This document shows, piece after piece, positions 1 through 5,652 of a stretch of DNA of 5,652 nucleotides. Position 1 is the stretch's first letter. Each line of letters begins with the position of its first letter. Source of the stretch: Escherichia coli (GTDB taxonomy: Bacteria > Pseudomonadota > Gammaproteobacteria > Enterobacterales > Enterobacteriaceae); the NCBI RefSeq assembly GCF_003334315.1, contig NZ_QOWR01000093.1; one strand, given 5' to 3'. The translations under genes were made by a program, and so were the position numbers. The notes under the pieces are model-generated. The model was not told where the DNA came from and did not search any database. It was given only the letters and a program-made list of their open reading frames with translations.

Positions 1-149
1 GGTTGAGAAGCGGTGTAAGTGAACTGCAGTTGCCATGTTTTACGGCAGTGAGAGCAGAGATAGCGCTGATGTCCGGCGGTGCTTTTGCCGTTACGCACCA
101 CCCCGTCAGTAGCTGAACAGGAGGGACAGCTGATAGAAACAGAAGCCAC
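1..149 (-). CDS. insA: IS1 InsA protein, N-terminal 49 codons only; the 3' end of the gene lies off-window
   Basis: Minus-strand translation from GTG at 149..147 gives [49 protein letters not shown]..., matching the recalled InsA zinc-finger N-terminus. The frame is open to the window edge. Confidence 0.85.
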
Positions 150-181
150 TGGAGCACCTAAAAAACACCATCATACACTAA

Positions 182-204
182 ATCAGTAAGTTGGCAGCAT
201 CACC
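182..204. repeat. IS1 terminal inverted repeat (IRL), ~23 bp
   Basis: Reverse complement of 182..204 is GGTGATGCTGCCAACTTACTGAT, the recalled IS1 terminal repeat, directly abutting fimH codon 57. Confidence 0.8.
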
Positions 205-375
205 CACGACCAGGTTTTGCCCCACATTCACGGCGGGCGCAAGGTTTACATAAACATTGGCGCTGCCACCGCCAATAGGGATAGCGGTACCATTGGCGGT
301 TTTACAGGCGAATGACCAGGCATTTACCGACCAGCCCATCAGCAGTACAGCAAACAGGGTAATAACTCGTTTCAT
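205..375 (-). pseudogene. fimH: fimH (type 1 fimbrial mannose-binding adhesin), 5' fragment of 57 codons, interrupted by IS1
   Basis: ATG at 375..373, then MKRVITLFAVLLMGWSVNAWS (signal peptide) and FACKTANGTAIPIGGGSANVYVNLAPAVNVGQNLVV (start of the mature lectin domain). After codon 57 the frame reads GDAANLLI-stop, which is encoded by the IS1 inverted repeat. Full-length FimH is about 300 aa; the rest must lie beyond the IS1 or be deleted. Confidence 0.88.
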
Positions 376-394
376 TACAATCATCTCTTCGGGT

Positions 395-871
395 TCAGCT
401 GTAGGTATAGGTGATGCTAATCACTGCCTGAATGGTTCCCTGAGTGGCTCCGCCATTTACCGTCAATGCTCTGACCTGTAACGGGAAGTGCGCTGATTGT
501 GAGGAATCATCCACCTGAACTGTTTTGGTTGCGCCAGTATTCAATGTGTTGCCACTGTCATCCTGTAGCTCTAACTGGATGTTTTGCGCGGTCCCCTGGT
601 TTTTATAATATCCGGTACTGTCGGCTGCCCCGCTGAAGCTGGCGGTGACCCTCGACGTTCCCACCGGACAATTAGTCAACTCAAGCGCAACATCATGCCA
701 GGCCGATGCCGCCCCGGCAGACATCAGACTGAAAGAATAAAGATCGCCGAGATCAACCGTGGCATTGGTGGTGGAAACCGTACACGGTTTGGCGACGACC
801 TTACCGTTCACCGTGATGGTGACATCGGCTGCCTGTATCGTCGCACTTGCGAGCGCCAATATTGCCGCCAA
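395..871 (-). CDS. fimG: fimG (minor tip-fibrillum subunit). The canonical gene extent is 395..898, but an in-frame TAG sits at codon 3 (890..892); the open frame downstream of that stop starts at TTG 871
   Basis: Translation matches FimG (..AAILALASATIQAADVTITVNGKVVAKPCTV...ISITYTYS). Upstream in the same frame: GGAG (905..908), 6-nt spacer, ATG (898..896), AAA, TAG (892..890), then CGC AAA CGT GGG TAT TTA TTG. Span 395..898 is 168 codons, the recalled FimG length (167 aa). This may be annotated as a pseudogene or with an alternative start. Confidence 0.8.
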   Translation of the reverse strand: MAAILALASATIQAADVTITVNGKVVAKPCTVSTTNATVDLGDLYSFSLMSAGAASAWHDVALELTNCPVGTSRVTASFSGAADSTGYYKNQGTAQNIQLELQDDSGNTLNTGATKTVQVDDSSQSAHFPLQVRALTVNGGATQGTIQAVISITYTYS

Positions 872-904
872 TAAATACCCACGTTTGCGCTATTTCATGA
901 GCAT

Positions 905-908
905 CTCC
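905..908 (-). promoter_or_regulatory. Shine-Dalgarno (GGAG) for the canonical fimG ATG at 898
   Basis: Minus-strand CTGGAGATGCTCATG: GGAG lies 6 nt upstream of the ATG, in the 12-nt gap after the fimF stop. Confidence 0.5.
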
Positions 909-910
909 AG

Positions 911-1441
911 TTACTGATATTCAAGAGTGAAGGTAGCCGTGGCATTGATATGCCCCGCAGTGACAGGCACCTGTGTCGCCATTAGCCGGGCGTAAAAATT
1001 CAACGTATTTGGTTTACCCGGCGTCAGGGTCGTCCACGAAATCGCGGACGATGGAGCATTAAGGGGTATTTGATTTTGCTGCTCATTCAGAAGCTGTATT
1101 CCCAGTCCCGAAGCCGCTGACACCGTATTTTCAAGTGCAAGCAGATTGGCATTGTGGCTATCTGCAACGCCGGTAAACCCAACTTTTACGGCAGAAACGG
1201 CATTACCACAGGGTGACAGCAAAATACGAAATGGAACAACAGGAGTCGTCGCGCCAATGTTGTTAAATTGCTTCGCCGCGTTTTCCATCAGATCAACAGT
1301 AAAATTGGTTGATTCAGCGGCCACACTACAGCCGTTATCTCTGACATAGCCGCGGATAGTAATCGTGCTATCCGCAGCCAAAGCGTGACTCACCGCCAGC
1401 CACAAAAAAGCGCACAGAAGATAAAAAGGTTTGTTTCTCAT
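911..1441 (-). CDS. fimF: fimF (minor fimbrial subunit / adaptor), 176 aa
   Basis: Translation [33 protein letters not shown]...ATFTLEYQ matches FimF, with a signal peptide and pilin-like C-terminal strand. The track starts one codon earlier at GTG 1444; ATG at 1441 gives the canonical 176 aa. A GGGGG run lies just upstream, and the fimD stop is at 1451..1453. Confidence 0.92.
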
Positions 1442-4087: not shown

Positions 4088-4090
4088 TAT

Positions 4091-4096
4091 TCCTCC
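4091..4096 (-). promoter_or_regulatory. Shine-Dalgarno (GGAGG) for fimD
   Basis: Minus-strand AACCGGAGGAATAATGTCA: GGAGG is a few nt upstream of the fimD ATG at 4087. Confidence 0.5.
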
Positions 4097-4153
4097 GGTT
4101 TAAAATCACCCGGCAGTCAATTCTTTTTATTCAGGCGAAAAATTCCCCCTGCG

Positions 4154-4879
4154 TTATTCCATTACGCCCGTCATTTTGGGGGTAAGTGCGCCATAATCAT
4201 TTATTGTTCGGTAAGTAATATTGCTTCCTGCATCAGAAGGCAATTTAACCGTGCTTTCGCCCATTGGAGGCACCAATGCATTTTCAAGAACCCGGGTTCC
4301 GGCATTCAACTCTGTTACCGTCAGGTAATAGGGTGTCGGGTTAATCAGCGTCAGAGAATTCGCGCTACGACGAAATCTTAATTTTTCTGCGGCCTGATCG
4401 GGTGGCAACGCTAATTTAGCCGGGCGATAGTACAGTTTAATGCGGCTGATAATTGCGAGCTGTAGCGTATTCTCAGTCAATTTTGATTTATCCATTGACG
4501 GAATCGCTTTAACGTTCATCCAGAATAAACTTTCCCGGTCCTGTGGCAATTGGTTATTTGTTGCATCAAGAATACGTAAGGTATTCTCTTTTTTTCCCTT
4601 CATCGCAAATAGAGGAGGCGTCACGATAAAACGACCATCCTTTACACCATCGGCATTTTCCACCCATGATTGAATTAAATAGGTACTATTTTCATCATTA
4701 TTTGTCACGGCAAGTTGCACTTGTTTTTGCCCTGCCGGATAAATTACGCGAGTCGCGCCTAAGGCCACTCCCGCTTCAGCGCGTCCGGCAACCATCATTG
4801 CCATGAACATCAGGATACCTGCCAGCAAGCAGAATGTTATTTCCTGCGATTTCCTTAGATTGACGTTTTTATTACTCAC
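4154..4879 (-). CDS. fimC: fimC (periplasmic pilus chaperone, PapD-like), 241 aa
   Basis: Translation MSNKNVNLRKSQEITFCLLAGILMFMAMMVAGRAEAGVALGATRVIYPAGQKQVQLAVTNNDENSTYLIQSWVENADG... matches FimC. The start at 4879 is GTG and gives the recalled 241-aa product. Confidence 0.95.
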   Translation of the reverse strand: MSNKNVNLRKSQEITFCLLAGILMFMAMMVAGRAEAGVALGATRVIYPAGQKQVQLAVTNNDENSTYLIQSWVENADGVKDGRFIVTPPLFAMKGKKENTLRILDATNNQLPQDRESLFWMNVKAIPSMDKSKLTENTLQLAIISRIKLYYRPAKLALPPDQAAEKLRFRRSANSLTLINPTPYYLTVTELNAGTRVLENALVPPMGESTVKLPSDAGSNITYRTINDYGALTPKMTGVME

Positions 4880-4915
4880 TGTCCTGTTCCTGTTATCACA
4901 TTATCTGCTGAACAA

Positions 4916-5455
4916 TTACTGATAGGTTAAAGAGAACCAGGCCTGGGCATTGGCGATGCCGCCAGTAACCCGACGCCCGGTAGCACGATATTTGGCGATG
5001 AAATGTAGCGAAGTAGAGCCTGAGTAAAGCCGTTTCCAGTTTGCTGGAGGACGATTAATCGGTACGAGGTTTCCTTCATCATCAAACAACGCTACGCCAA
5101 TATTGGTGGCTATCCCTGGCCCCTCTCCCACGGAAAGCACATCCGGATTTTTACCATCCGCGACACCGTGAAACGCCACACCCACACGTTCACTCACCAC
5201 CGTGCTACATTCCCGTAAATGAATAACAAAAGGCACCGGTGCGCTATCTTCCCCTGCCGCATGAAACCGGTTACTGCTGATTTGCCCCATATTGACCGTC
5301 ATTTGTTTATCACCGGCTTCAATCCGGCAAGTTTCCGCAATAATGACGCCCTGAAATTGCATATTTCCGCCGGGCAGCGTGGTATTCCATTTATTTCCGG
5401 CCAGAGCAAACATTGGCAGCAACGACGCTAACAGAAATAATCTCTTCCTTTTCAT
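4916..5455 (-). CDS. fimI: fimI (fimbrin-like protein, FimA paralogue), 179 aa
   Basis: Translation from ATG 5455..5453: [49 protein letters not shown]...[10 protein letters not shown], with a signal peptide and pilin fold. The track's longer ORF (to 5563) would overlap the fimA 3' end, so the internal ATG at 5455 is the likely start. Confidence 0.9.
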
Positions 5456-5519
5456 CGTTATTTTTATCGCACAAGGGTGGGCATCCCTGCCCGTAATGAC
5501 GTCCTTGAACCTGGGTAGG

Positions 5520-5577
5520 TTATTGATACTGAACCTTGAAGGTCGCATCCGCATTAGCAGCACCCGGGGTTGCGGCC
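5520..5577 (-). pseudogene. fimA: fimA (major type 1 pilin), 3' terminal remnant of 18 codons plus stop, cut off by IS186
   Basis: Minus strand reads GCC GCA ACC CCG GGT GCT GCT AAT GCG GAT GCG ACC TTC AAG GTT CAG TAT CAA TAA = [22 protein letters not shown], the recalled FimA C-terminus. Immediately upstream in this frame is a TAG and sequence unrelated to fimA (the IS186 end). Confidence 0.85.
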
Positions 5578-5652
5578 CATAAGCGCTAACTTAAGGGTTG
5601 AACCATCTGAAGAATGCGACGCCTCGGTGCCTCGTTAAGACGATGCCTCGCG
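5578..5652 (-). mobile_element. IS186 (IS4 family) terminus, partial; element continues beyond the window's right edge
   Basis: Plus strand from 5578 reads CATAAGCGCTAACTTAAGGGTTGAACC..., which I recognise as the IS186 terminal inverted repeat. The flanking sequence CCCGGGGTTGCGGCCC fits the G-run/spacer/C-run insertion preference reported for IS186. Strand is assigned from the partial transposase-like frame below. Confidence 0.8.
5586..5652 (-). CDS. Probable C-terminal end of the IS186 transposase (partial; 5' end off-window)
   Basis: The minus-strand frame is open from the window edge and reads [25 protein letters not shown], ending inside the terminal repeat as is typical of IS4-family transposase genes. 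The assignment rests on recollection only. Confidence 0.4.

Follow-up and report, generated by a model that had tools for sequence, protein, structure and literature searches.

The locus considered here is the operon for type 1 fimbriae in a stretch of 5,652 nucleotides of Escherichia coli (contig NZ_QOWR01000093.1; hereafter the window, meaning the whole stretch that was analysed), in which the fim genes are read from the minus strand between the ends of two different insertion sequence (IS) elements. Their order and orthology are those of the type 1 chaperone-usher operon fimAICDFGH, as established by gene-by-gene comparison and by a profile search of the open reading frames (ORFs) of the window, in which FimI, FimD, FimF and FimG were recognized by NCBIfam equivalog models (Table 1). 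The set of structural genes is not intact: fimA and fimH are broken by IS elements, and the third codon of fimG is a stop. An earlier interpretation made from the letters alone (the sequence-only reading) had held that fimA and fimH are each hit by a different IS element and fimG by a nonsense mutation, with the chaperone, the usher, fimI and fimF spared. This is borne out at base resolution, and the latter four reading frames are of full length. Together with the related assemblies described below, these observations make it very probable that the fimAICDFGH operon in the window belongs to a small E. coli clone and is in early pseudogenisation, brought about by three sequential and independent mutations.

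Table 1. Features of the window, in order of position
Feature	Position	Strand	Remarks
IS1 left end (left inverted repeat, IRL, at 204-182, then 5' part of insA)	1-204	minus	co-directional with fimH; match to annotated IS1A
fimH 5' fragment, codons 1-57 (signal peptide and 36 lectin-domain residues)	205-375	minus	identical to residues 1-57 of 13C1065T FimH
fimG pseudogene, start ATG AAA TAG	395-898	minus	stop at 890-892
fimF, intact, 176 aa	911-1441	minus	NCBIfam NF052362, 287.8 bits, full length
fimD usher, intact, 878 aa	1451-4087	minus	NF011740, 1127 bits, above cut-off, full length
fimC chaperone, intact, 241 aa	4154-4879	minus	239/241 identical to K-12 FimC
fimI, intact, 179 aa	4916-5455	minus	NCBIfam NF052361, 332.9 bits, 1-179 of 179
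FimR2 small RNA counterpart, fimA-fimI intergenic	5476-5510	minus	K-12 annotation and intergenic alignment
fimA 3' remnant, last 18 codons and stop	5520-5577	minus	read from sequence
IS186/IS421 (IS4 family) end, 75 nt	5578-5652	minus	100% identical to annotated copies

The fim region of the window is 99.2% identical in DNA to that of E. coli K-12 and 99.94% identical to that of E. coli 13C1065T (locus L001), the nearest complete genome, whose structural fim genes are intact. Only three differences separate the window from L001 over 5,375 bases (window 204-5578), namely at 891 (the fimG stop, TGG->TAG), at 4610 (a synonymous change in fimC) and at 5167, the last of which is private to L001. 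Sister contigs that extend beyond the window place the operon in its usual chromosomal context, with nanC-fimB-fimE-fimS upstream and uxuAB downstream: contig L003 is collinear with K-12 from nanC to fimH, and the rest of fimH, uxuA and uxuB are present in L023 and L024.

The IS1 end is recognized by its terminal inverted repeat, GGTGATGCTGCCAACTTACTGAT, followed by insA, both read on the minus strand of window 204-1, and 203 of its 204 bases are identical to an annotated IS1A of 13C1065T. Read in the fimH sense, the junction runs ...AACC TGGTCGTG / GGTGATGCTGCC, where the slash marks the start of the IRL, and the 8-bp target duplication has one of its copies at window 205-212 (CACGACCA, or TGGTCGTG when read with fimH). 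Each IS element has a single junction in the window, from which alone a simple insertion and an IS-mediated deletion are indistinguishable. We derived the ORF expected beyond the element after a simple insertion, with a GTG start and FimH residues 58-300, and looked it up exactly. It was matched in L023, L024 and L026, where the right end (IRR) of IS1 is followed by TGGTCGTG and GATCTT..., and then by the remainder of fimH and the genes uxuA and uxuB, at an identity to 13C1065T that reaches 100%. The window combined with these three contigs thus displays both copies of the duplication, of the 8-9 bp known for IS1 (PMC5009759), and the lesion is, for the clade as seen in related assemblies, a simple insertion with an 8-bp duplication.

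The junction of IS1 with fimH is absent from all complete E. coli genomes in RefSeq, and exact look-up of the 65-aa FimH'-IS1 fusion ORF, annotated as OWD49590.1, "hypothetical protein [Escherichia coli]", returned 11 contigs, some of them from metagenomes; the clone is accordingly rare, with about 11 contigs carrying the junction. Some further variation was seen around fimH. Position 160, within the IS1 copy, is A in the window and C in sister contigs L004, L009 and L010; in the IS1 sense this turns GAGG into TAGG 8 bases upstream of the insA GTG start, in what is likely the Shine-Dalgarno sequence, and the change could be real in this copy or reflect a consensus of several IS1 copies at the contig end. 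Two unrelated assemblies, L022 (GCA_003008995.1, about 2070-2090) and L025 (SRR31116004, about 1970-1990), have an independent fimH knockout, in which codon 53 has changed from CAA to the stop TAA, four codons before the IS1 site, and the same 244-aa ORF is left downstream. The gene gntP, which lies between fimH and uxuA in K-12, is absent from this lineage, where just a short pseudogene or 36-aa ORF occupies its place (L001 1484-2269; L023 859-1644).

The element in fimA is identified as IS186/IS421 by its 23-bp terminal repeat, CATAAGCGCTAACTTAAGGGTTG, which is followed by 52 nt in the window, and by the DDE transposase of the full element present at the same site in L73 and L012-L021; the identical copies are annotated as IS421/IS186A family transposase. 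To judge from L012, the transposase gene would in this orientation be co-directional with the fim genes. Of the 10-bp target duplication of IS186, one copy occupies window 5568-5577 (GGTTGCGGCC), centred in GGGG-TTGCGG-CCCC, and the uninterrupted site in L001 reads CACCCGGGGTTGCGGCCCCGG, i.e. CACCC GGGG TTGCGG CCCC GGTTGC. The GGGG(N6/N7)CCCC target of IS186 and the duplication of its core were confirmed in other genomes: strain L73 has a full 1,339-bp IS186/IS421 at exactly this fimA site, flanked by the 10-bp repeat GGTTGCGGCC, and both the element and this repeat recur at the site in ten further loci (L012-L021), three in the orientation of the window and seven in the opposite one. Among 5,426 complete E. 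coli genomes, 45 have IS186 in fimA, 14 with the junction of the window and 31 in the opposite orientation. The truncated product, FimA(1-167)-HKR, is indexed in 1,343 blocks of a public collection; the intact allele is indexed in 57,959, and the FimA allele of K-12, truncated in the same way, in 1,175.

The fimA site is the published top hot spot of IS186, and the phenomenon is thus already known. In 520 K-12 mutation-accumulation lines covering about 2.2 million generations, Lee et al. 2016 (PMC5009759) recorded 68 new IS186 insertions, of which 16 lay at GGGG(CCGCAA)CCCC in fimA, in either orientation and in lines free of selection; the whole data set held a single IS excision. By our arithmetic these figures amount to about 7e-6 insertions per generation at the fimA site, roughly 3e4 times the per-base substitution rate that follows from 1e-3 substitutions per genome per generation (PMC5009759). 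The same allele, fimA::IS186, recurs in antibiotic-evolved MG1655 (Hoeksema et al. 2018, PMC6307192). The window agrees with these K-12 cases (PMC5009759, PMC6307192) in the site, the 10-bp duplication, the occurrence of either orientation and the C-terminal truncation of FimA, and differs from them in that a natural-isolate fimA allele is hit and the insertion is combined with two further lesions. The IS186 hot spot at the lon promoter of E. coli B (SaiSree et al. 2001) is alike in the element, the kind of GC-rich consensus target and the recurrent loss of function, and differs in the gene hit and in affecting a promoter rather than coding sequence. We found no paper describing the prevalence of fimA::IS186 in natural genomes within a limited literature search.

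Additional fim lesions are frequent in genomes with IS186 in fimA: they were seen in strain L73 (L002), which has a frameshifted fimD and a truncated fimE besides its IS186, and in five of the ten loci L012-L021 (L013, L014, L016, L017 and L021), and include IS insertions in fimB or fimE and one in fimD, fimB or fimD left uncalled, and loss of downstream genes. These extra lesions fit either decay after a first hit or selection. The small RNA FimR2 also has a counterpart next to the insertion, with one G>A difference from K-12, and IS186 now lies between it and the fimA promoter, so that its expression may be lost along with that of fimA; an Rfam scan of the window gave no family at or above the gathering score, the FimR2 region included.

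The third lesion is a G>A change on the coding strand of fimG at window 891, relative to L001, which converts TGG into TAG (W3*); no further stop interrupts the other 164 codons. Initiation at a TTG at 869-871 (codon 10) would yield a protein of 158 aa devoid of the charged N-terminus of the signal peptide, and this 158-aa ORF aligns with positions 11-166 of 166 of the NCBIfam FimG model NF052363 at 279 bits. The W3* allele was found only in the window and in two contigs, L005 and L007. The possibility that the stop is an allele of the whole lineage had been raised by the annotation of fimG in the closest relatives (L001 and L002 3192-3635), where the prokaryotic genome annotation pipeline (PGAP) lists a 147-aa "fimbrial protein" beginning 20 codons into an open 167-aa ATG frame; it was rejected, as these relatives have TGG at codon 3, and the 147-aa annotation looks like an inconsistency that stems from where the start codon was placed. 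The 158-aa ORF proved uninformative as a means of counting W3* carriers, since it is also called after an IS1 just upstream of fimG or at contig edges.

The order of these events was traced by comparing close relatives, as the sequence-only reading had advised. All eight sister contigs have the identical IS1/fimH junction. In L003 (SRR21743707, a 39.6-kb contig) IS186 is lacking, fimA is intact and so is fimG; L006 (ERR4220982) has IS186 in fimA in the orientation of the window, and L004 (GCA_023276455.1) has it in the opposite orientation, its first 52 bases matching the other end of the element, with fimG intact in both. The stop in fimG is confined to the window, L005 and L007, which trace to GCA_002190225.1 and SRR3951468; contig LYBE01000574.1 of the former assembly and the Logan assembly of the latter run are 100% identical to the window. 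L005 shows the IS186 junction and is too short to reveal its orientation, and L007 begins at the insertion site. By this distribution, IS1::fimH appears to be the founder lesion and the first event, and the fimG stop the latest, private to the strain of the window. Into fimA, IS186 must have inserted on at least two separate occasions in this small clade, because both orientations occur and one sister is without the element. A derived base at window 4143, common to L003 and L006, of which only L006 has IS186, would fit such recurrent insertion, with the reservation that it is a single nucleotide polymorphism. A single linear order of IS1, then IS186, then W3* was thus refined, given the opposite orientation in L004, and the claim that the inactivating events are independent stands, with the addition that they were acquired successively in one clone.

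The four surviving genes bear little trace of this history. They differ from K-12 by one amino acid in FimF, two in FimD, two in FimC and one in FimI, and FimI, FimC, FimD and FimF have no private amino-acid change in comparison with relatives in which fim is intact; the change at window 4610 in fimC is the only derived difference, and it is synonymous. A ratio of nonsynonymous to synonymous substitution rates (dN/dS), the check advised in the sequence-only reading, could not be computed against the nearest relative, with 0 nonsynonymous and 1 synonymous differences. K-12 was used in its stead: in fimI, fimC, fimD and fimF pooled there are 28 synonymous and 6 nonsynonymous differences, a ratio per site (pN/pS) of 0.065. 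The four genes would hence have been under strong purifying selection until very recently, their own decay not having begun. The lack of private changes together with this low pN/pS suggests that the loss of fim is very recent, and the absence of any signal of relaxed constraint is expected of lesions this young. The sequence-only reading had also seen in FimC and FimD an orphan chaperone-usher core; this remains apt for the reading frames and less so for their expression, as no promoter of their own could be shown for fimC and fimD, which now lie behind a 1.3-kb IS186.

These lesions can be placed in the biology of type 1 pili. FimH binds mannose, and the complex of FimC with FimH activates the FimD usher; the C-terminal beta-strand of FimA is needed for chaperone binding, donor-strand exchange and subunit polymerisation. 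We propose that IS1 first entered fimH at codons 55-57 with its 8-bp target duplication, leaving an adhesin of 36 mature residues, which on the known workings of type 1 pili should neither bind mannose nor, in complex with FimC, activate FimD. This insertion alone should abolish adhesion and most piliation. IS186 would then have entered its consensus GGGG(N6)CCCC target at fimA codons 164-167, with loss of the last 15 residues and gain of His-Lys-Arg; at 1.3 kb, and sited between the fimS promoter, the only one known, and fimICDFGH, it would probably be polar as well. Either IS1::fimH or IS186::fimA should suffice by itself to abolish functional pili. Finally, a G>A transition would have turned fimG codon 3 into a stop, at which translation should end. 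Hits after the first were probably neutral, the second being attributable to the exceptional rate of site-specific insertion rather than to selection, and the four remaining genes would be intact only for lack of elapsed time.

The regulatory region lies outside the window and was read in related assemblies. In L003, fimE is identical to that of K-12 and the inverted repeats of fimS are present, and fimB (2152-2753) has a 1-bp deletion in an A7 run at codons 7-9, i.e. a frameshift, along with an Arg>Ser change near its C-terminus. This frameshift would bring the fim lesions of the clade to four and, given an intact fimE, would tend to lock the switch in the OFF phase. A promoter-like TTGAGA-18-TATGAT oriented towards fimE (phase OFF) is present in K-12 and in every assembly examined. 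Among the closest complete relatives, an IS1 takes the place of fimB in 13C1065T (L001 10335-11102) and truncates fimE in L73 (L002 11155-11852); hereabouts in the E. coli tree, fimB and fimE are thus commonly damaged, including in genomes whose structural genes are unbroken.

What the co-occurrence of three hits says about selection needs to be weighed with care. The sequence-only reading took it as a sign of relaxed or negative selection on fimbriation. Three hits in one operon are not a matter of chance under continued purifying selection, yet selection against fimbriae is not required to explain them. Relatives have several dozen copies of IS1, with at least 39 matching places per record, and for this reason an IS1 in any given 7.5-kb operon is not rare; as a rough estimate it would be of the order of one in twenty genomes. 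The fimA lesion in turn says little about selection, because the site is a known hot spot that is hit without it. As later hits are expected to be neutral once fimH is broken, their number speaks for decay after a first hit and not necessarily for selection. The earlier claim is accordingly supported in part.

Several points weigh against our interpretation of three sequential hits. The loss of piliation is deduced from the known roles of FimH, FimA and FimG, and the neutrality of the later hits is an assumption. The order of events draws on a few short contigs and on parsimony. Simple insertion was seen in sister assemblies; for the strain of the window itself, one side of each IS is covered. 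Re-initiation at the codon-10 TTG of fimG might still take place. Lastly, the window, L005 and L007 may come from one isolate or read set, in which case they would provide little independent confirmation of W3*.

Among other explanations, one is that fimbriation was selected against in this clone, as proposed for Shigella and enteroinvasive E. coli (EIEC), with each hit individually favoured. In those pathogens the fim clusters of all groups have been inactivated by distinct mutations (PMC4374849), and the window resembles them in having several independent IS and nonsense hits per cluster, in combinations that vary among related strains (PMC4374849). It differs from them in being annotated E. 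coli, in having the usher and chaperone intact and in lacking any catalogued lesion. The catalogue of Bravo et al. 2015 (PMC4374849) lists IS1 in fimD codon 221 or fimI codon 35, fimB Q162*, fimD Q563*, IS629 in fimH codon 264 and large deletions; none of these lineage-defining lesions is found in the window, where fimD, fimC and fimI are intact. S. sonnei lacks both fimA and fimC; in S. flexneri 2a, fimD carries IS elements. A Shigella origin of the window was accordingly rejected, the fusion ORF, whose name is the one item of source metadata, also being annotated as E. coli, and the parallel to Shigella lineages drawn by the sequence-only reading was weakened. The frequent multi-hit fim operons of other IS186::fimA genomes (L73 and half of L012-L021), the fimB frameshift in the sister L003 and the two IS186 hits on fimA within one small clade would all suit a history of favoured losses, as against which further hits bring no obvious extra benefit once fimH is broken, the IS186 site is hit at its high rate without selection, the clone is rare, and in experiments the fitness effect of fim loss varies with conditions. 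On balance we consider selective loss in this clone unlikely.

Lineage-specific fim lesions are also familiar from other E. coli, in the form of the ISEc55 insertion in fimB of sequence type ST131 and a 16-bp deletion of fimS in O157:H7. These are comparable to the present case in marking a lineage by the loss or locking of type 1 fimbriae; they hit the regulatory switch in large, successful lineages, whereas in the window it is the structural genes of a rare clone that are affected.

A laboratory origin is a different explanation, under which IS186::fimA, and possibly W3*, arose in isolation, storage or culture before sequencing. The same insertion recurs in laboratory lines, the K-12 allele of FimA is truncated identically in the public collection, and the presence and orientation of IS186 differ among the sisters, a pattern that very recent events on terminal branches would produce; IS186::fimA could indeed have arisen in culture. 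Such an origin would nonetheless leave IS1::fimH, common to independent samples including metagenomes, unexplained, and it has to contend with the 45 complete genomes from varied hosts with IS186 in fimA and with contigs that break cleanly at the junction, suggesting an insertion at high frequency in the sequenced culture. Seen against the preferred reading of successive decay in a natural clone, we hold a laboratory origin to be rather improbable as an account of the locus. A more speculative idea, to which we give very little credence, is that the GGGG(N6)CCCC motif near the 3' end of fimA is a maintained contingency site, a high-rate and essentially irreversible off-switch by IS186 that would complement the reversible fimS; it is prompted by the reliance of the motif on the rare GGG glycine codon, by hits in both orientations, in about 1-2% of genomes, and by repeated hits in single clones. 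That the IS junctions are repeat-joining artefacts and the operon actually intact, as the repeated IS sequence at both ends of the window, typical of draft contigs, might suggest, is already contradicted by identical junctions in at least eight contigs from different runs and assemblers, by complementary junctions with matching target duplications and by the perfect consensus target at the IS186 site, and can practically be dismissed.

That fim decays through IS elements and nonsense mutations is amply documented, and the hot spot in fimA is published, so that the window presents a case of routine gene decay. It bears nonetheless on how such loci are read: in genome scans IS186 in fimA is not to be taken as evidence of selection, because the site mutates about 10^4-fold faster than a single base and the insertion can arise in culture. 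The clade itself illustrates multi-hit pseudogene formation in natural isolates, in which a fixed founder lesion, IS1::fimH, was followed by repeated and independent secondary hits.

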